From a virus (taxonomy: Duplodnaviria; Heunggongvirae; Uroviricota; Caudoviricetes): DNA of 9,265 bases. Shown piece after piece: positions 1 through 9,265 of this stretch. The translations under genes and the position numbers were made by a program. The first letter of the stretch is position 1; each line of letters begins with the position of its first letter. The stretch is from IMG/VR virus record IMGVR_UViG_2541047843_000007; one strand, given 5' to 3'. Under the pieces are notes generated by a model. It had not been told where the DNA came from. It was given only the letters and a program-made list of their open reading frames with translations, and searched no databases.

Positions 1-70
1 GAGTCTTGAGTCTTGAGTCTTGAGTCTTGAGTCTTGAGTCTTGAGTCTTGAGTCTTGAGTCTTGAGTCTT
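1..70 (-). repeat. Perfect heptanucleotide tandem repeat, (GAGTCTT)x10 on the + strand = (AAGACTC)x10 on the - strand. The tract runs to the window edge, so true copy number is >=10.
   Basis: Direct reading: 70 nt of uninterrupted 7-bp units, ending at position 70. Lies inside the 5' end of a minus-strand ORF starting at 75. Confidence 0.95.
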
Positions 71-75
71 AACAT
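1..75 (-). CDS. neuO: 5' end of a neuO-like phase-variable polysialic acid O-acetyltransferase gene (start codon only; rest of gene is left of the window).
   Basis: Minus strand reads ATG (75..73) TT then (AAGACTC)n, translating as M-L-(RLKTQDS)n. AAGACTC tracts at the 5' end of neuO, located downstream of the tailspike gene in prophage CUS-3, are established knowledge. Possible SD TAGGA about 8 nt upstream. The acetyltransferase body is not visible, so the identification rests on repeat identity and synteny. Confidence 0.6.
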   Translation of the reverse strand, partial: MLRLKTQDSRLKTQDSRLKTQDSRL

Positions 76-228
76 ATTAGTATCCTACGTTATTTTACCA
101 CTAGTTACTTTTCTTGTCATTAAAAAGCATTTAAATTTTTATATTTAATTTCGTTGACGTCAATGTTTTTTGCCAATGTACTTACTTCTTTATGTGATCA
201 GTTCATATTTTTGACGCCAACGAAACAT

Positions 229-3174
229 TTAGTGCTTCCCTTCTATTAAGTCTAACCTAGCTTTTATTCTTTCTATTTCTCTGCGCTGCCATGCTGCCTC
301 GATATAGAATAAGAGATCAGGTCTGACCCCCCATCTAGATCCTGCTGGCGTTATTTCAACGCGCTCAATGATGTCTTCCATTACCATCACTGGATTATCA
401 TCCTCATCAACAATGATGCTCCCGTCATTATCAGTCAGCGGCATTTCCCTTTGGCCAGTAATGACGTCATCATATACTGCGGGATAATCGTCATAGCAAA
501 GAAAGGCATAGCGGCATGTTGTGCTTTCTTCTTCCATGAGTCCGTGAGAAATAAGAACATCACGAAGTTGCTGCGCGATTACACCATGATGTATCCTCGC
601 CCCTTCTTCCCCCTTTATAGCGACAGCGTTCAGCCATTTATAAGCGATATACCTGACGTCACCCCAGGCATCCAGCAATGTTTCGTCAGGAGAGACCGGC
701 TCTGTCTTTAATGTTCCGTCACTGGTAACCACAGGATTGGAGCCAAGATAAACTATCGAGAACCTGTTTCCCGGACCACCAAGAGCATTTACATTATCAA
801 GATAAGGTTTAACATCTCCGTTCTCAAAAAGATGTTCGAGTGCGTTATATACCGCGCGACGTGGAGTACTGCTTCTGGAACCATGCAACGTTATCATTGC
901 ACCATCTGCTGAAGACGTTGTTTCACCGCCGCTAACGATTAATCTCTGAGCGGTAACATCATCAGACGGTACTTTCTTCGCAATAATGGCGTAATTACCC
1001 TCAAGTTTGACTTCCGCGCGAACTTGTCCTGATGTACCTGCATGGACAGTCAGTGACTGGACGGCAACATCATCTGTGAAATCAACGGGTACAGGAACCG
1101 TCCTCACGCCTGACGTCGACATAAAAGTAGGAAGCGTTCTGTTAGGAGTGGCTCCGTAGACAAAATCCCTTGAAACAAATTCTTCCTGTTTAATTTTCAC
1201 CCTGAAACAATACAAATCAGCCGGGTGACCATCGTGAACATAAGGATATTTTCTGTTGTTATCCCCTATGCTCCATGGGTTTAGAAAGTCTTCCCCACCG
1301 AAAATGTAGTACAGCCAGTTGTCTTTGATACAAACTGAACCAACACCAACCGCAGAGTTAACTATTCCGCCCTGATAAATCTGATCAGTAACATTAACCC
1401 ACTCTACATTATCCAGACTCCACTCATTGACGTTAACTCTGGTCATAAATGTTCTTGGATAGTTTCCTGCATAACGGTTATCAGGTTCTCCTCCTTCCCA
1501 CTCACCAAATGCGCGCTCACTGCCAAAAATAATCAGCTCATCGCCAACTTTGGCAAAAGGAAGGTTTGAGTGATGAACATTATTTGGGAAGCGAAGAGAA
1601 TTCCATGATGTACCTAAATCAGAGCTTCTGTGCAATGAACTACCGGGTTGAGTACTTAATGTCCCCCTGGTCGTCAGATACAGAATGCCATCATAATATT
1701 TTACACATGGCTCAGATGCATTCGCCTCATATTCTGCAGGTATGCGTCTGCGAACAAAGCTACCAGGAGAACCGAAAGCATCAGAGAAATAGAGTATCCC
1801 AAGCTCGCGTGGACCAATATCACCATTATGGTAGCCAACAGCAAAACTGTTATCGCTAATCGTCGCAAAACTGTGAATCTCAGTAACAGGAGTGCTTCCG
1901 TCAACAAAAGAAGGAATAGTTCCAAGACTGGTTTTTCTCCATGGTGACGAGTGAAATGATGTACCAAAACTCCAGTATCTACCCTCGTTATTCTGATCCA
2001 CATCCTGGGTATTTTGCGTCGTAACTGTAAAAGTATTTTTATCAATAACAGTAGTCACCGTCATATTCCCGGTAACACCTGTAACACCAGAGTTTGAGAA
2101 GTTGACAAAATCACCAGCAAATAATCCGTGATCAGTAATGCGAATATAAGCGACTTGCTGATTTGCTGCTTTCGTTATACCACCATAAACGCGAAGGCTG
2201 CGACTCATTGGGCGATCCCACAACTCTGCAACCTGCAGTTTATTTCCGCTCACGGTCCGCGTCTCAATTACAGCAAAAAGGCGATTTCTGACAACCCCCA
2301 TACTCATGCAGTGATAGTTAACTGTGGGATAGTTTTCATGTAAATCTGTAAGCCATTCCGGCGTTGTCCAGGTCTTCCCGTCATCTCCTGAGCGAACCCA
2401 TGCAACATGGAGGTTATTTACACCATGGCGGTCTCCAGCCATAAAAGGCGCATAGATGACATTGTCATATACAAACGTTTTATCCTGCGTCCAGGCGTTG
2501 TACCACGGTGTATCTGTAATTTTAAATAACTCTCCCTGGATAAAATCTTCAGAAACATAAAAAAGAGGCTGACCCGGTATTCTCTCAAATAAAAAACGAG
2601 CATTTTTAAATCGACTGACATCTGGAAGAGTTGATACTTTAAAAGTAAGCCCTCGCCCATCTATCTTTTCACCACCTGTTGCAACAGAAAGTAATTCTGA
2701 TAGAGCTGATGTATCATCATGAACACCATCACCAATAGCCCCCCAACCTCTTACATCATAACTGTCTCTCCATCTTGCTATCTGAAGTTTTGGGTATTTA
2801 TTCGCTCCATCTGGGTCTTCTAATTGCTGCCGTAGTTGATCAGGATCATACTTCAGCACATTCTGGAAATAGAACTGCTGTACGCCATACGCATCGTACA
2901 CAGCCATAGAATGGCCTTGCACAGTTACGAACTTGGCAATCCGTCCGTTATATACAGGGTAACCAGCAGCGTTAATGATGATTGGTTGCGAAACAGGAAC
3001 GTGAGAGCCGTCTTCGTTCTCTACATAAACCTGAATCCGGTTTTCAGGATTTACCGGGTCAGTGTCAATTTTACCGATATAAATTTTGCCATTGGCTACG
3101 GCTTTAAAAGAACGCGCCATAGTGAAGAGTTGCGAAGGCATCGATACAATCACATTGGCTGTAATGTCTGTCAT
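229..3174 (-). CDS. Tailspike protein with endosialidase (endo-N-acetylneuraminidase) module, 981 aa: P22-type head-binding N-terminus, sialidase central region, C-terminal intramolecular chaperone-like domain.
   Basis: Single uninterrupted 981-codon ORF. N-terminal ~110 aa (MTDITANV...[21 protein letters not shown]...VYNG...[12 protein letters not shown]...NVLKYDPDQ) closely matches the P22 gp9 head-binding domain as I recall it. Two sialidase Asp-box motifs (S-x-D-x-G-x-T-W) are present: SGDDGKTW and SSDLGTSW. The C-terminal ~150 aa resembles the autocleaving chaperone domain of K1-phage endosialidases. GGAG lies ~10 nt upstream of the ATG at 3174. Confidence 0.9.
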
Positions 3175-3232
3175 TTAATTTGCTCCAGATGCAAAGAATC
3201 GCCGCAGCATGGCCACGGTGAATTTTGGGCAT

Positions 3233-3255
3233 AAAAAAACCCAGCCGAAGCTGGG
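3233..3255 (-). terminator. Rho-independent terminator (minus strand) between the 147-aa ORF and the tailspike gene.
   Basis: Minus strand reads GC-rich stem CCCAGC (3255..3250), UUCG tetraloop (3249..3246), GCUGGG (3245..3240), then a 7-U run (3239..3233). It sits ~20 nt past the stop of the ORF at 3275..3718. Confidence 0.6.
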
Positions 3256-3274
3256 TCGTTGCGTTGGTTATCTG

Positions 3275-3718
3275 TCAGTAATTATGTACTGAAGGAGGTA
3301 ATTCTTTATTCTTAAGTCTCATCCATGCGGAAAGATTCGTTGGTCCGTCTGGCTCATTGATATCAACATCTCGTGTGTGATTGATTAAAACGTCTCTCGC
3401 CATATCGATAATACGGGAGAACTCATAACCGCAGTCATGACATCTGCCGGAATAGTTCGATTGAATTTGTTTTAGCGCCGGATACAGTTCGCGGAATAAT
3501 GCCTGTGAGCGGTTGGCATAATCCCATAGCCATACAAGGCTGTTTGCTTCTTTTGCAGAAAGCTCGTTGGTTTTCTTCTCTTGTTTGCCGATGAACTCAC
3601 CTTCAAGCACTACCCTGTGGATGTACTCTACTGCTTGTGGTATCTGAGATGCATCAAGCTCTTCAATACTTTCCACATTGAAACGCTGATGAATCATTGC
3701 ATAAGCTTCTGGGTACAT
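3275..3718 (-). CDS. Hypothetical protein, 147 aa, no recognised family; possibly the 3' remnant of a longer gene cut by IS911.
   Basis: 444-nt ORF on the tailspike strand, followed by a terminator. No convincing SD before the first ATG. The frame stays open upstream into the IS911 end (stop only at 3746..3748, inside the IS), consistent with 5' truncation. Contains a CHDC motif, but no domain I can name. Confidence 0.45.
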
Positions 3719-3808
3719 TAGATGCTTTTTGCTGACTGAAGTGGTTTACTGAATTTGGCCACCTGAACAGAGGTGATATGCTCACCTCAGAACAACACAG
3801 GTGCCATA

Positions 3809-4956
<1,148 letters not shown>

Positions 4957-4986
4957 CTCGGTGGCCAGTTTTTGTTGACCACTTCA

Positions 4987-5157
4987 ATGCAACAGTTCGC
5001 TATTGCAGGGGCGGCATCGGTTCGCCCTTTCAACCCGATTTTATCGGTACAGCATTCACGAAAAAACATTTTAACCGGAGCAGACTTTAAACAACCAAGA
5101 ATGAAAAGCTTGCTCGAAAAGCTTTGGGATATTTTGAAACAACAAGGCCGTCCATGA
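4987..5157 (+). CDS. Small hypothetical ORF (56 aa from the ATG at 4987); possibly the distal part of a gene truncated by IS911.
   Basis: The ATG is the first triplet after the IS911 right end and has no SD. The stop overlaps the next start (ATGA at 5154..5157), suggesting membership of an operon. Confidence 0.3.
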   Translation: MQQFAIAGAASVRPFNPILSVQHSRKNILTGADFKQPRMKSLLEKLWDILKQQGRP

Positions 5158-5312
5158 GTTTTACGGATAACTGGTCAGACGAAGAATTCATTCGTCAGAT
5201 AAAAGAATTAATCGGTAACGAAGGAGATATTCATGTCACTTGCAACCACAGTGAAGGAGAGCAAGTTACAGAGACGCATGTACACGCAGAAAGCTCTCTG
5301 GTATCGCCATAA
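5154..5312 (+). CDS. Small hypothetical early protein, 52 aa, immediately upstream of erf.
   Basis: ATG at 5154 with AAGG about 7 nt upstream. ATGA overlap with the preceding ORF. The position matches the small kil/arf-type genes that precede erf in P22-like phages, but no sequence recognition is claimed. Confidence 0.4.
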   Translation: MSFTDNWSDEEFIRQIKELIGNEGDIHVTCNHSEGEQVTETHVHAESSLVSP

Positions 5313-5413
5313 TGGTGACCGCGAAGGAATGCGGGTATGCCTTAATTTGTCCCGAGTCGAAGTATTAAATCAGCGTTATTTCCTTGGGCCGTGTCCATTC
5401 TGAGAGCAATCAT

Positions 5414-6019
5414 ATGAGCAAAGAATTTTACGCAAGACTGGCAGCTATTCAGGAGAATCTGAACGCGCCAAAGAATCAGTACAACTCATTCGGCAAATAT
5501 AAATACAGAAGCTGCGAAGATATTCTTGAAGGCGTTAAGCCGTTACTGAACGGTCTGTTTTTATCAATCAGCGATGAAGTTGTGTTGATTGGTGATCGGT
5601 ATTACGTGAAAGCCACGGCAACTATTACCGATGGCGAAAACAGTCATACGGCAACCGCTCTTGCACGAGAGGAAGAAAGCAAGAAAGGAATGGATTCTGC
5701 ACAAGTTACGGGAGCTACAAGCTCTTATGCACGCAAGTATTGCCTCAATGGTTTGTTCGGCATTGATGATGCGAAAGATGCAGATACAGACGAGCATAAA
5801 CATCAGCAGAACGCAGCAGCAAAGCAATCAAAACCATCACTTACACCTGAACAGGTTCTAAAAGCATTCACTGACGCAGCAATGCAGAAAAACACCGTAG
5901 AAGAGCTTAAACAGGCGTTCGCCAAAGCGTGGAAGATGCTCGAAGGGACGCCGGAGCAGCACAAAGCGCAGGACGTTTACAACATCAGACGAGACGAATT
6001 AGAAGGGGCAACTGCTTAA
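5414..6019 (+). CDS. erf: Erf (essential recombination function) single-strand annealing protein, 201 aa.
   Basis: N-terminus MSKEFYARLAAIQENLNAPKNQYNSFGKYKYRSCEDILEGVKPLL matches P22 Erf as recalled. The tool ORF begins at a TTG at 5384; the ATG at 5414 is preferred. Its stop overlaps the next start (TAATG). Confidence 0.8.
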   Translation: MSKEFYARLAAIQENLNAPKNQYNSFGKYKYRSCEDILEGVKPLLNGLFLSISDEVVLIGDRYYVKATATITDGENSHTATALAREEESKKGMDSAQVTGATSSYARKYCLNGLFGIDDAKDADTDEHKHQQNAAAKQSKPSLTPEQVLKAFTDAAMQKNTVEELKQAFAKAWKMLEGTPEQHKAQDVYNIRRDELEGATA

Positions 6020-6402
6020 TGGCACATTCGATTACAGTAAGACTAAACAAACCCGCAAGAGAGTTTCAGGGCGGGGAAAATATCGGATTCAACATCCGTG
6101 CTGGCGTTCAGTATTACGATCGCCAGACAAAAAAGAAAGAATGGACAAACTACAGCGCCGTTGTATTTGCCAAGCCGGGAGCGCAAGCGGATTACTATCG
6201 TAGCGTTCTGGTTGAAGGAGGCATTGTAGAAATTACCGGAGAAAACATCAGGGTTGATGTTTATCAGGGGCAAAATGGTCAATCAATCACTCTTGAATTA
6301 CTGAATGCAAAGATTGGATTTGCAACTTCAGGAAACAGCCAACAGCAGCAAAGTAGCAATCATCAAAATAATCCTGAATACGACGATTCCATCCCATTCT
6401 GA
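6019..6402 (+). CDS. Phage single-stranded DNA-binding-like protein, 127 aa, with an SSB-type acidic C-terminal tip.
   Basis: ATG at 6019 overlaps the erf stop (TAATG), suggesting translational coupling. The protein ends in DDSIPF (compare the canonical SSB tail DDDIPF), preceded by a Q/S/N-rich linker. The N-terminal ~100 aa has an OB-fold-like alternation (EW..YSAVVF). The tool ORF from 5929 is an upstream extension overlapping erf. Confidence 0.65.
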   Translation: MAHSITVRLNKPAREFQGGENIGFNIRAGVQYYDRQTKKKEWTNYSAVVFAKPGAQADYYRSVLVEGGIVEITGENIRVDVYQGQNGQSITLELLNAKIGFATSGNSQQQQSSNHQNNPEYDDSIPF

Positions 6403-6425
6403 TTTAGAAAAATAAGGATTTAATT

Positions 6426-6722
6426 ATGCCAGCGCCTTTGTATGGTGCGGATGACCCGCGCCGCTGTTCCGGCAATTCCGTATCGGAGGTGCTGGATAAA
6501 TTCAGAAAAAACTACGATCGAATAATGTCTCTACCGCAGGAAACGAAAGAGGAAAAGGAATTTCGCCACTGTATATGGCTTGCAGAGAAAGAAGAACGCG
6601 AGCGAATTTACCAGACATCAATCCGACCATTCCGCAAAGCCACATATACCCACTTCCCTGAATATATCGACCCGCGCCTGCGTAATTACCGCTCACGCTA
6701 TGGCGCTATCAGTAATGACTGA
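6426..6722 (+). CDS. abc2: Abc2-like anti-RecBCD protein, 98 aa (assignment from position and size; exact sequence not recalled).
   Basis: ATG at 6426 with AAGGA 7 nt upstream. 98 codons, the size I recall for P22 Abc2. It lies downstream of erf in the same operon, as abc genes do in P22. Confidence 0.55.
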   Translation: MPAPLYGADDPRRCSGNSVSEVLDKFRKNYDRIMSLPQETKEEKEFRHCIWLAEKEERERIYQTSIRPFRKATYTHFPEYIDPRLRNYRSRYGAISND

Positions 6723-6816
6723 GGAATTTACCATGAGAGGACTTGCTTAAGAGAAAGAGTTTCGGTTCTGTTAATGACAACAAATATCTGAATGCGATGT
6801 GGCGGAGTGGGAAGAA

Positions 6817-7335
6817 ATGAAACAAATGTCACTAATTGAGATGGATGGTTTTCTGAAAGGTAAATGCATCCCAAGTGATTTAAAGGTTAACGAAACAAAC
6901 GCTGAATACCTTGTCCGTAAGTTCGGTGAACTTGAATCAAAACTGGAAACGGCGTTGCGGGAGTGTAGTTCTGCTGGAATCACGATTGATAACCTTGAGG
7001 CTAAATGCGCGAAGATGGCTGCTGAAAATACCTCACTTAAGCAATCTGAGAAGGAATTTAATGACTTTTGTCGTGAGGAGTTTAGCGAATGGGAAGATGA
7101 TGTTACTGAAACCCCAGCCACCGATGCTTTTCTGGCTGAAGTGCGGGCGCAGGGGGTGGATGCTGCTATAGAAGCTGCAAAAAATCTGGTGGCCCAAGAA
7201 TATGAGTATAAGGATTTCAAAGCGGCGCAGAGTGATTGCTGTATGCACCCTGGTTCAGACCTGGTAGGGAAGGTTGAAATGACTGAGTGGTTAGTTGACT
7301 TTGCTGCCCAGCTTCGCAAAGGAGGCAACCAGTGA
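6817..7335 (+). CDS. Hypothetical acidic protein, 172 aa; first gene of a translationally coupled cassette.
   Basis: ATG at 6817 with GGAG 9 nt upstream (the tool ORF starts at a GTG at 6799). The stop overlaps the next start (GTGA). The large antisense ORF 6771..7568 is rejected as a shadow. Confidence 0.6.
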   Translation: MKQMSLIEMDGFLKGKCIPSDLKVNETNAEYLVRKFGELESKLETALRECSSAGITIDNLEAKCAKMAAENTSLKQSEKEFNDFCREEFSEWEDDVTETPATDAFLAEVRAQGVDAAIEAAKNLVAQEYEYKDFKAAQSDCCMHPGSDLVGKVEMTEWLVDFAAQLRKGGNQ

Positions 7336-7631
7336 CTGTATGTCTTATTGATAAACGTCGACGTGGGCAACAAATACCATCTGTTGAAATGCCGAATCAC
7401 ACATGGTTTTGCGTACTTGATATCGATGGTATGGATACGTTGGTTGACACTCGTCATTACTGCGATACCGCAACAGCTACTCCGGCGAAAGCAAAGAAAA
7501 TGGCTGCTCTGATAGAAAACTGGACTCCACCTGATGGTTGGTGCAATGGGAATGATCGAGATTGGCACGAAAAAATGAAGGGCTATATCTGCGATTTTTT
7601 ACGTAAATGCAACGGCTTCAGGGGGATGTGA
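7332..7631 (+). CDS. Hypothetical Cys-rich small protein, 99 aa.
   Basis: GTG start at 7332 with AGGAGG 6 nt upstream, overlapping the previous stop. Six Cys and several His are spread through the protein, so metal binding is possible but unproven. Confidence 0.55.
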   Translation: MTVCLIDKRRRGQQIPSVEMPNHTWFCVLDIDGMDTLVDTRHYCDTATATPAKAKKMAALIENWTPPDGWCNGNDRDWHEKMKGYICDFLRKCNGFRGM

Positions 7632-7632
7632 T

Positions 7633-8205
7633 ATGACCAAAATTAACTATCAGGCACTGCGTGAGGCGGCAGAACGTGCAATTCCGGCAATGGAACGCCT
7701 GTTAATGTTGCCAGTTGATGATGATTTGTTAAGTGAACAGGAACTTAAGGATTACGGTGTGGATATTGATGCGCTCAACGCCTTCAAATTTCTGACCGGA
7801 CCAGAAACCGTGCTGGCGCTGCTGGATGAACGGGAAAGAAACCAGCAATACATCAAACGCCGCGACCAGGAGAACGAGGAAATTGCGCTAACGGTAGGGA
7901 AGCTGCGCGTTGAGCTGGAAGCTGCAGAGAAGCGCATTGCAGAACTGGAAGCCGAACCTGTAAGCCAAACTTACAAGTTGAACGAGCTGTCGGGCAACTA
8001 TCCGGTAACTCCGGATGGTTGGATAAGCTGTAGTGAGCGAATGCCCGCTCAAGATGATTGGATTTTAATTTATTCAAAGCACGGCGAGTATATGGCAGGA
8101 CAGGTACAAGGGGAATACGTGGAGTTGAGCGACGGCACTTTATCGTGGTTAGGGAACGCCTTGTTCTGGATGCCGCTACCAGAACCGCCGCAGGAGGTTA
8201 ATTGA
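7633..8205 (+). CDS. Ead/Ea22-like protein with a C-terminal DUF551-like region, 190 aa.
   Basis: ATG 1 nt after the previous stop (TGAtATG). The N-terminus (MTKINYQALREAAERA...) is typical of lambdoid Ea22-family proteins as recalled, and the C-terminus (PDGWISCSERMP...LFWMPLPEPP) resembles DUF551. Coiled-coil-like middle (ELEAAEKRIAELEAE). Confidence 0.65.
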   Translation: MTKINYQALREAAERAIPAMERLLMLPVDDDLLSEQELKDYGVDIDALNAFKFLTGPETVLALLDERERNQQYIKRRDQENEEIALTVGKLRVELEAAEKRIAELEAEPVSQTYKLNELSGNYPVTPDGWISCSERMPAQDDWILIYSKHGEYMAGQVQGEYVELSDGTLSWLGNALFWMPLPEPPQEVN

Positions 8206-8399
8206 TGGTCTCCTTCGCGAAATATACGATTATTGACTGGATAGCATTCATTCAGGTTTTGCTCATCTGGTTTTATATGGCTTACAGGAGTGGACAGTGG
8301 ATTGTCAGTGTAGCCTGTAGCAATGGATGGCGTTGGTGGAACCGAAAGAATAAAAAAAGCGCTGGCCTTGGCTTCGTTTTACGAAGCATTCAATCTTAA
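8205..8399 (+). CDS. Small putative single-pass membrane protein, 64 aa.
   Basis: ATG at 8205 overlaps the previous stop (TGATG), with AGGAGG 7 nt upstream. Hydrophobic segment IIDWIAFIQVLLIWFYMAY followed by a basic stretch (WNRKNKK). Confidence 0.5.
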   Translation: MVSFAKYTIIDWIAFIQVLLIWFYMAYRSGQWIVSVACSNGWRWWNRKNKKSAGLGFVLRSIQS

Positions 8400-8482
8400 C
8401 AGTCTTCAGCCTGGTTCTGTCGTTGTAGTCACCACTCAAAGCGGCATGACGATACAAATTCACAAGCCAAAGGAGGAAGGTC

Positions 8483-8767
8483 GTGGCTAACCTGCAACTT
8501 GCCGTTAAAGGTGAATACTTCGATGCCATGATTCGCGGAGAGAAAACGGAAGAGTATCGCCTGTGTAATGACTACTGGAATAAGCGAATTATGTTCCGCG
8601 AGTATGACCGCCTGATTATCACAAAGGGATATCCGAAGCGCGACGATTCCAGCCGCAGAATTGACGTCCCGTATGACGGATATGAAATCAAGACAATCAC
8701 ACATCCGCACTTCGGCGATAAACCGGTAAAGGTATTCGCTATAAAGGTGAATATCGACAATGAATGA
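8483..8767 (+). CDS. ASCH-motif (PUA-like) small protein, 94 aa.
   Basis: GTG start at 8483 with AGGAGG 6 nt upstream. Contains G-x-K-x-x-E-x-R (GEKTEEYR), the ASCH signature as recalled. Confidence 0.6.
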   Translation: MANLQLAVKGEYFDAMIRGEKTEEYRLCNDYWNKRIMFREYDRLIITKGYPKRDDSSRRIDVPYDGYEIKTITHPHFGDKPVKVFAIKVNIDNE

Positions 8768-8839
8768 TAATCCTCGCACTCGCGGGGATTTCTTTTATCT
8801 GAACTCGCTACGGCGGGTTTTGTTTTATGGAGATGATAA

Positions 8840-9007
8840 ATGCACTTCCGAGTCACAGGTGAATGGAATGGAGAGCCATTCAACAGAGTTATCGAAGCAG
8901 AGAACATCAACGACTGCTATGACCACTGGATGCTGTGGGCGCAGATAGCACATGCAGACGTAACTAATATTCGAATTGAAGAACTGAAAGAACACCAAGC
9001 CGCCTGA
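8840..9007 (+). CDS. Small hypothetical protein, 55 aa (below the ORF-track size cutoff); the overlapping ORF 8760..8948 is the alternative.
   Basis: ATG at 8840 with GGAG about 8 nt upstream. Translation MHFRVTGEWNGEPFNRVIEAENINDCYDHWMLWAQIAHADVTNIRIEELKEHQAA. The stop TGA (9005..9007) lies in the loop of the terminator hairpin. It reads as more protein-like than the out-of-frame 8760..8948 ORF, but which one is real cannot be decided without homology. Confidence 0.35.
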   Translation: MHFRVTGEWNGEPFNRVIEAENINDCYDHWMLWAQIAHADVTNIRIEELKEHQAA

Positions 9008-9019
9008 TGGCGGTTTTTT
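8999..9019 (+). terminator. Rho-independent terminator closing the accessory operon, upstream of the excisionase-like gene.
   Basis: Stem GCCGCC (8999..9004), loop TGAT, stem GGCGG (9009..9013), then a 6-T run (9014..9019). Confidence 0.6.
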
Positions 9020-9064
9020 ATTGCCTGATTTGCAGGTTCGATTCCCTATTCGGAGATAGCACTC

Positions 9065-9265
9065 ATGCAACACGAACTACAACCTGATTCACTGGTTGAT
9101 TTGAAATTCATCATGGCCGATACTGGCTTCGGTAAAACCTTCATCTATGACCGGATTAAGTCCGGCGACCTGCCAAAAGCCAAAGTTATCCACGGGCGAG
9201 CAAGATGGTTATATCGTGACCATTGTGAATTCAAAAATAAGCTCTTAAGCCGCGCCAATGGGTAA
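9065..9265 (+). CDS. Excisionase / AlpA-family winged-helix DNA-binding protein, 66 aa; an integrase gene is expected just beyond the window.
   Basis: ATG at 9065 with GGAGA about 9 nt upstream. Translation (FIMADTGFGKTFIYDRIKSGDLPKAKVIHGRARWLYRDHCEF) fits the AlpA/Xis helix-turn-helix pattern. It is the last gene of the early-left arm, where xis sits in P22-like phages. Confidence 0.6.
   Translation: MQHELQPDSLVDLKFIMADTGFGKTFIYDRIKSGDLPKAKVIHGRARWLYRDHCEFKNKLLSRANG

Follow-up and report, generated by a model that had tools for sequence, protein, structure and literature searches.

A truncated antirepressor gene, ant, at an IS-associated deletion junction in a decaying CUS-3-like prophage

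The antirepressor Ant of phage P22 is a 300-aa protein of the immI region, encoded directly upstream of the tailspike gene, and it binds and inactivates repressors of the C2/cI type (Susskind & Botstein 1975, as cited in PMC3121763). The slot between genes 16 and 9 in P22-like phages is known as the "ant moron", and degraded forms of ant have been described in HK620 and Scho1 (PMC2629481). In the CUS-3-like group of prophages, transcription of intS and torI is uncoupled (PMC2951348), and among K1 strains there are some in which those located at argW-dsdC have decayed to a length of about 8 kb (PMC9659370).

The window analysed here is the whole 9,265-nucleotide stretch of IMG/VR record IMGVR_UViG_2541047843_000007. 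An earlier note on this DNA had described a 147-aa ORF upstream of the tailspike, followed by a strong hairpin, and had proposed that it was either an accessory or superinfection-exclusion gene or the remnant of an antirepressor-like gene. The program-listed ORF is real and runs from ATG to TGA at 3275..3718 on the minus strand, a strand that the earlier note had left unstated.

Prophage context and identity of the ORF

Comparison with related genomes places the window in a decaying CUS-3-like prophage (P22-like and K1-specific) integrated at argW. Genomes matching the window at 99.6-100% carry the element between argW/intS and torI/dsdC, in the order yfdC-argW-intS-acyltransferase-tailspike ... 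torI-dsdC; argW, intS and dsdC lie outside the window itself and were placed from these matching genomes. The 981-aa tailspike gene, downstream of ant at 229..3174 on the minus strand, is intact, and its product has the same accession, WP_000129907.1, in APEC O1 and PE144. Pfam searches identified the domains Head_binding, End_N_terminal, End_beta_propel, End_beta_barrel, End_tail_spike and Peptidase_S74, so that the protein is a fusion of the P22 head-binding domain with a K1 endosialidase and, at the C-terminus, a chaperone domain, as in the CUS-3 type. This gene has stayed fully intact although all other virion genes and the late promoter have been deleted. In its locus, its endosialidase tailspike and its shrinkage to about 10 kb the element resembles other decayed CUS-3-like prophages, for example that of CE10 (PMC9659370); these are presented in that paper without an ant fragment or IS junctions, and the junction varies by strain.

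The 147-aa ORF, which the earlier note could not assign to any family, was identified as part of ant at once by Pfam and PHROG scans and by megablast. The Pfam domain P22_AR_C (PF10548, "P22AR C-terminal domain") matched residues 47-119 with E=7e-29 and a score of 100.1 bits against a cutoff of 22.4, and the whole model was covered (1-73/73). The ORF also matched PHROG 245 (phrog_245, "anti-repressor Ant") with E=3e-48, aligning only to profile positions 169-292 of 319, the pattern characteristic of a C-terminal fragment. The remaining PHROG matches fell in antirepressor families or in families without a known function, apart from one weak match to a DNA-binding protein. Annotated ant genes or Ant proteins were matched by megablast in the genomes of phages vB_EcoP-611R6 (98%), epsilon34 (96%) and P22 (89%), and every phage ant match started at query position 64-65, which equals window 3736/3737. 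Scanning against NCBIfam gave no match, and thus no curated NCBI family; a PDB sequence search with full-length Ant likewise gave none, and thus no solved structure by sequence. An Rfam scan at the gathering cut-off found no RNA family in the window.

Window positions 1..3737 are 100% identical to E. coli PE144. Both PE144 and APEC O1 carry an intact 300-aa "phage antirepressor Ant" (WP_001350929.1) at the same position, directly upstream of the tailspike, so that the earlier comparison of this slot with the immI/ant position of P22 holds. As a check on the assignment, the fragment was compared with intact ant and does align with its 3' half. The remnant is colinear with the 3' 462 nt of the gene, and the retained DNA matches the corresponding stretch of the 300-codon ant of the PE144 and APEC O1 prophages at 100% identity (0 mismatches against PE144) and that of P22 ant at 89%. 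On the evidence of Pfam, PHROG and DNA identity, the ant 3' remnant, codons 148-300 and the stop codon, occupies 3275..3736 on the minus strand. The ORF is thus the leftover C-terminal half of a P22-type antirepressor gene, ant, which bears out the suggestions of the earlier note that it might belong to a larger gene and be an antirepressor-like remnant.

The break point can be read directly from these alignments. Homology to ant stops at window 3736/3737, the left end of an IS element, and identity to PE144 ant covers nt 442 onward, so that the gene is broken after nt 441, that is, after codon 147. In intact Ant, Pfam places P22_AR_N at residues 14-125 (in both PE144 and P22) and P22_AR_C at 200-272. 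A Pfam scan found no P22_AR_N (PF10547) in the window ORF because codons 1-147 have been deleted. The start of the ORF is the first in-frame ATG of the remnant and corresponds to Met154 of intact Ant. Upstream of this ATG the frame is open for 9 codons, the final 3 of them inside the IS end, before a TAA at 3746..3748; none of the 9 is a start codon. The frame does therefore run open into the IS end, as had been noted.

The hairpin reported after the ORF was found 18 nt past the stop codon, at 3231..3257 on the minus strand. A consensus scan recovered an intrinsic terminator with an 8-bp stem, a TTCG loop and a T7 tail: a G+C-rich hairpin of sequence GACCCAGC-TTCG-GCTGGGTT, followed by T7. Its folding energy is -14.5 kcal/mol (z = -2.6), and a fold as good was obtained in 1/200 shuffles. 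Base for base it is identical to the annotated "ant terminator" of the curated P22 record BK000583. By this identity the hairpin is the native terminator of ant and no mark of an independent gene, although the earlier note had taken it as the ORF's own. The locus therefore shares with P22 Ant (immI region, 300 aa) and its orthologue WP_001350929.1 the terminator, the C-terminal domain and the slot directly upstream of the tailspike. It differs in keeping codons 148-300 only, without the N-terminal domain, Pant, arc, mnt and the sar antisense RNA; of the features expected at the orthologous position, the tailspike and the ant terminator are present, and the IS has taken the place of arc, mnt, Pant and sar.

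A separate gene with an accessory, moron or superinfection-exclusion role and a terminator of its own might have been expected at this site: the slot, between the injection genes and the tailspike gene, is variable and holds sieA and immI in P22 (PMC2629481), and a terminator directly follows the ORF. Such a gene is scarcely credible, given that the ORF follows intact ant colinearly, at 100% identity, over the 3' 462 nt, that the terminator belongs to ant, that no PADLOC model was matched (no defence family at E<=0.01), and that the same 147-aa product is called wherever ant breaks upstream of Met154, whether by nonsense codon, frameshift or indel. The alignment to intact ant refutes the independent-gene reading. 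As far as can be told from the DNA, the ORF encodes part of a known protein and has no function of its own, an outcome that the earlier note had itself named as telling against an accessory gene.

The IS element and the 29.8-kb deletion

The element that abuts ant is a complete IS3-family IS of 1250 bp (3737..4986, plus strand), identified from its inverted repeats, its domains and the annotation of matching genomes. It is bounded by 27-nt terminal inverted repeats, TGAAGTGG at the left end (IRL, 3737-3763) and CCACTTCA at the right end (IRR, 4960-4986), and its termini are 5'-TG...CA-3'. On the plus strand it carries orfA (3809-4111) with a Pfam HTH_Tnp_1 domain, an orfB frame ending at 4956 with a Pfam rve domain, and an A6G (AAAAAAG) -1 frameshift motif at 4060-4066, which was read from the sequence. 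In the matching genomes PGAP names it "IS3-like element ISEc52 family". The earlier label, IS911, was close: the IS3 family stands and the name becomes ISEc52, an element taken to be IS911-like from its OrfA and inverted-repeat sequences and from the PGAP name. A literature search on ISEc52 returned nothing relevant to its relation to IS911. The same 1250-bp IS is 100% identical in four other strains.

Target-site duplication of 3-4 bp was sought around the IS and is not present, since the two flanks differ (gac to the left of the element, atg to the right). This absence points to a deletion or rearrangement and does not speak against membership of the IS3 family. The flanks were located in the intact prophage of APEC O1: window 1..3737 equals positions 9470..13206 of the APEC O1 locus (L007), and window 4987..9265 equals 43034..47312 of the same locus. 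The left and right flanks of the IS are therefore 29.8 kb apart in the intact prophage, which means that 29.8 kb is missing here and that the IS marks a large deletion. A simple insertion of the IS into ant, with the 5' half of the gene lying across the element, was rejected because the sequence on the right belongs to the early-left operon, at a distance of 29.8 kb in APEC O1, and because there is no target-site duplication.

The stretch deleted relative to APEC O1 includes the 5' half of ant and arc/mnt-type genes, and Pant, arc, mnt and sar have all been lost from the window prophage. All injection, head, portal, terminase, lysis, Q, nin and replication genes are deleted too, together with cro and the gene for the LexA-family (C2/cI-type) repressor of the prophage itself.

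On the right, the deletion ends in the early-left operon. A 56-aa ORF (4987..5157, plus strand) begins with its ATG directly after the right end of the IS; it equals the APEC O1 sequence from L007 43034 onward, annotated there as CDS WP_001183771.1. The sequence GAAGGAGCATCCT found upstream of this ORF in APEC O1 has been replaced by the IS, and the GAAGGAG ribosome-binding site is lost with it. No promoter-like site was found in 4900..5450. The retained operon, from erf to torI, has lost pL and has no obvious replacement promoter. Comparison with the annotation of L003 and L007 located early-left lesions at approximately 6735..6820, 7690..7950 and 8200..8490. Several early-left genes count as pseudogenes or fragments in the annotation of the intact APEC O1 prophage too: DUF2737 is present as a fragment, the ead/Ea22-like gene is truncated and the DUF4752 gene carries a frameshift. 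These lesions are therefore older than the IS deletion.

IS junctions and broken ant genes in related prophages

Five strains carry an identical copy of the 1250-bp ISEc52 element, in the same orientation, within the same CUS-3-like prophage, and the pair of flanks differs in each. The strains compared were those of the window, 19AR1321, CEA212U, PE144 and AH21I008 (loci L003, L004, L005 and L006 besides the window). Three of the junctions are nested inside ant, at nt ~339, 442 and ~695. Relative to the window, 19AR1321 retains a further 103 bp of ant and lacks another 152 bp on the right, and CEA212U shares the right junction and has lost an additional 253 bp of ant. The IS of PE144 lies between a fragment of gene 16 and a site immediately ahead of torI; that of AH21I008 has sequence from upstream of the holin gene on one side and a truncated replication gene on the other. 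Among the complete E. coli genomes searched none carries the window junction in one piece, the best two having 103 bp more of ant; the exact IS-ant junction of the window was found in a short Logan contig (L015), present in 4 samples.

These end points suggest how the junction may have arisen. An ISEc52 element sits at the break, with ant abutted after codon 147 on the left and the early-left (erf) operon on the right. One or more IS-associated deletions would have taken the 5' half of ant, Pant/arc/mnt/sar and the virion, lysis, replication and repressor genes, leaving ant codons 148-300 and the native ant terminator. We infer from the end points that a one-ended adjacent deletion by intramolecular transposition was the likeliest route, and it looks as though serial IS-adjacent deletions whittled the prophage down. 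The locus agrees with IS911/IS3-family adjacent deletions in having an intact IS at the junction with TG..CA ends, OrfA/OrfB, A6G and no target-site duplication, and in the series of end points on either side given by related strains; it differs in that the mechanism is here deduced from end points. A search for an intermediate IS with a target-site duplication found none.

Homologous recombination between two directly repeated ISEc52 copies, one in ant and one before the 56-aa ORF, would also leave a single copy and would likewise predict the loss of the target-site duplication. Two IS3-family copies within this prophage are known from another strain, APEC E19019, though there the IS is different and the copies are inverted. 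This route is rather unlikely: the window and CEA212U share the right junction and differ by 253 bp on the left, so that an extra independent insertion would be needed, whereas a further one-ended deletion from IRL gives exactly this pattern. An identical IS in the same orientation with five flank pairs is a better fit to repeated adjacent deletions from one ancestral copy.

In APEC E19019 (L016 3229..10456) the two inverted copies belong to another IS3-family element, of a type with an annotated "AL1L pseudoknot". Most of the tailspike and the stretch from the injection-protein gene to the 5' part of erf have been deleted from that prophage, and ant is intact. It is an independent case of IS-driven decay of the same prophage. 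In CEA212U (L003 9261..9518), PGAP calls an 85-aa "P22AR C-terminal domain-containing protein" with its start codon 49 nt inside the left end of the IS; this IS-ant fusion ORF, created by the deeper deletion, is probably an annotation artefact. The 19AR1321 copy of ant is labelled by PGAP as a pseudogene, "incomplete; missing N-terminus".

Gene calls in assemblies that lack the IS include the same 147-aa product as well, beside a separate ORF carrying P22_AR_N. A natural two-gene form of ant was considered for these loci and rejected, as each represents full-length ant with a nonsense codon, a frameshift or indels. The gene was broken by an E124* nonsense mutation (L008 5542..6444), a 35-bp indel (L009 4063..4940), a 1-nt deletion causing a frameshift (L011 1518..2419) and two indels (L014 255..1159). 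In a further CUS-3-like prophage, near bioA, ant was cut at nt 330 by another IS3-family element (L010 1..713). A weaker reading of these many independent lesions (nonsense, frameshifts and at least four IS junctions) is that they may reflect selection to silence ant, stabilising the neuO-carrying prophage; a look-up of the 147-aa product finds only broken ant by construction, and the loci are thus a biased sample that gives no frequency of breakage. The ant morons of HK620 and Scho1 resemble the present case in that a remnant of ant is left in the slot between gene 16 and the tailspike of a P22-like genome. The lesion described here differs in being recent, clean and IS-bounded, with no point decay, and HK620 and Scho1 are functional phages, whereas here a ~30-kb deletion inactivates the whole prophage.

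Expression and function of the fragment

A simple consensus scan, a method that may miss transcription that is weak or comes from read-through, found no minus-strand site resembling a sigma-70 promoter in 3150..3900, and no Shine-Dalgarno motif was seen in GCAAAAAGCATCTA, the sequence upstream of the ORF ATG. The natural target of Ant, the repressor of the prophage itself, has been deleted. Lacking a promoter, a ribosome-binding site and the N-terminal domain, the fragment most probably makes no functional product. The ORF is almost certainly not a working gene, and we would put the probability that it is an inert ant pseudogene fragment at about 0.93. The earlier proposal of an accessory or superinfection-exclusion function is not sustained, with the N-terminal domain, promoter, regulators and ribosome-binding site missing and PADLOC giving no match. 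Since no mutations separate the fragment from intact alleles, the deletion was recent, and the state of decay is uninformative on selection.

The fragment keeps the whole of P22_AR_C and about 50 preceding residues, and this domain makes up the bulk of some short PHROG families (phrog_7640, 107 positions; phrog_377, 213 positions). It is conceivable that the retained part of Ant would fold on its own. The 3' ~330-360 nt of ant, from nt ~544-590 on, are common to many E. coli prophage antirepressor genes at 80-97% identity, as measured on the intact ant of L004 (9275..10177). The genes that share this 3' part, including those of O157:H7 prophages, have different 5' parts. A mosaic recombination boundary lies in ant just before the Pfam P22_AR_C domain. 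To judge from this distribution, the C-terminal module is evidently a mobile unit.

A stand-alone P22_AR_C protein (residues 154-300), expressed at a low level from a promoter that is weak or arose by chance, within or close to the IS end, could in principle still act in trans. The activity proposed for it would be to bind cI/C2-type repressors of resident lambdoid prophages or to be dominant-negative on the full-length Ant of incoming phages. The complete and undamaged state of P22_AR_C speaks for such a protein, as do the mobility of the C-terminal module, which is joined to varied N-terminal parts in E. coli antirepressor genes, the short PHROG families of which the domain fills most, and the action of P22 Ant on the repressors of several phages (PMC3121763). 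We nevertheless consider it very unlikely, because the minus strand has no promoter-like site and the ATG no Shine-Dalgarno motif, Pant, arc and sar are deleted, and ant is cut elsewhere in other strains, in CEA212U inside the part retained here. Such differing cuts argue against selection for a product of the fragment. If the fragment were active in trans, the dead prophage would have left behind a small regulatory or immunity-modulating protein.

An inert fragment of ant remains the preferred reading, and as such the feature is an ordinary one of a known kind: a truncated ant at an IS-mediated deletion junction of a decaying CUS-3-like prophage. It has little importance beyond correct annotation, for which the proper label is ant pseudogene fragment, in line with what PGAP has done in one strain, and not hypothetical or accessory protein. 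The locus offers a tidy example of how IS elements whittle down a prophage while its host-relevant end is kept, a general phenomenon already described at this locus (PMC9659370).
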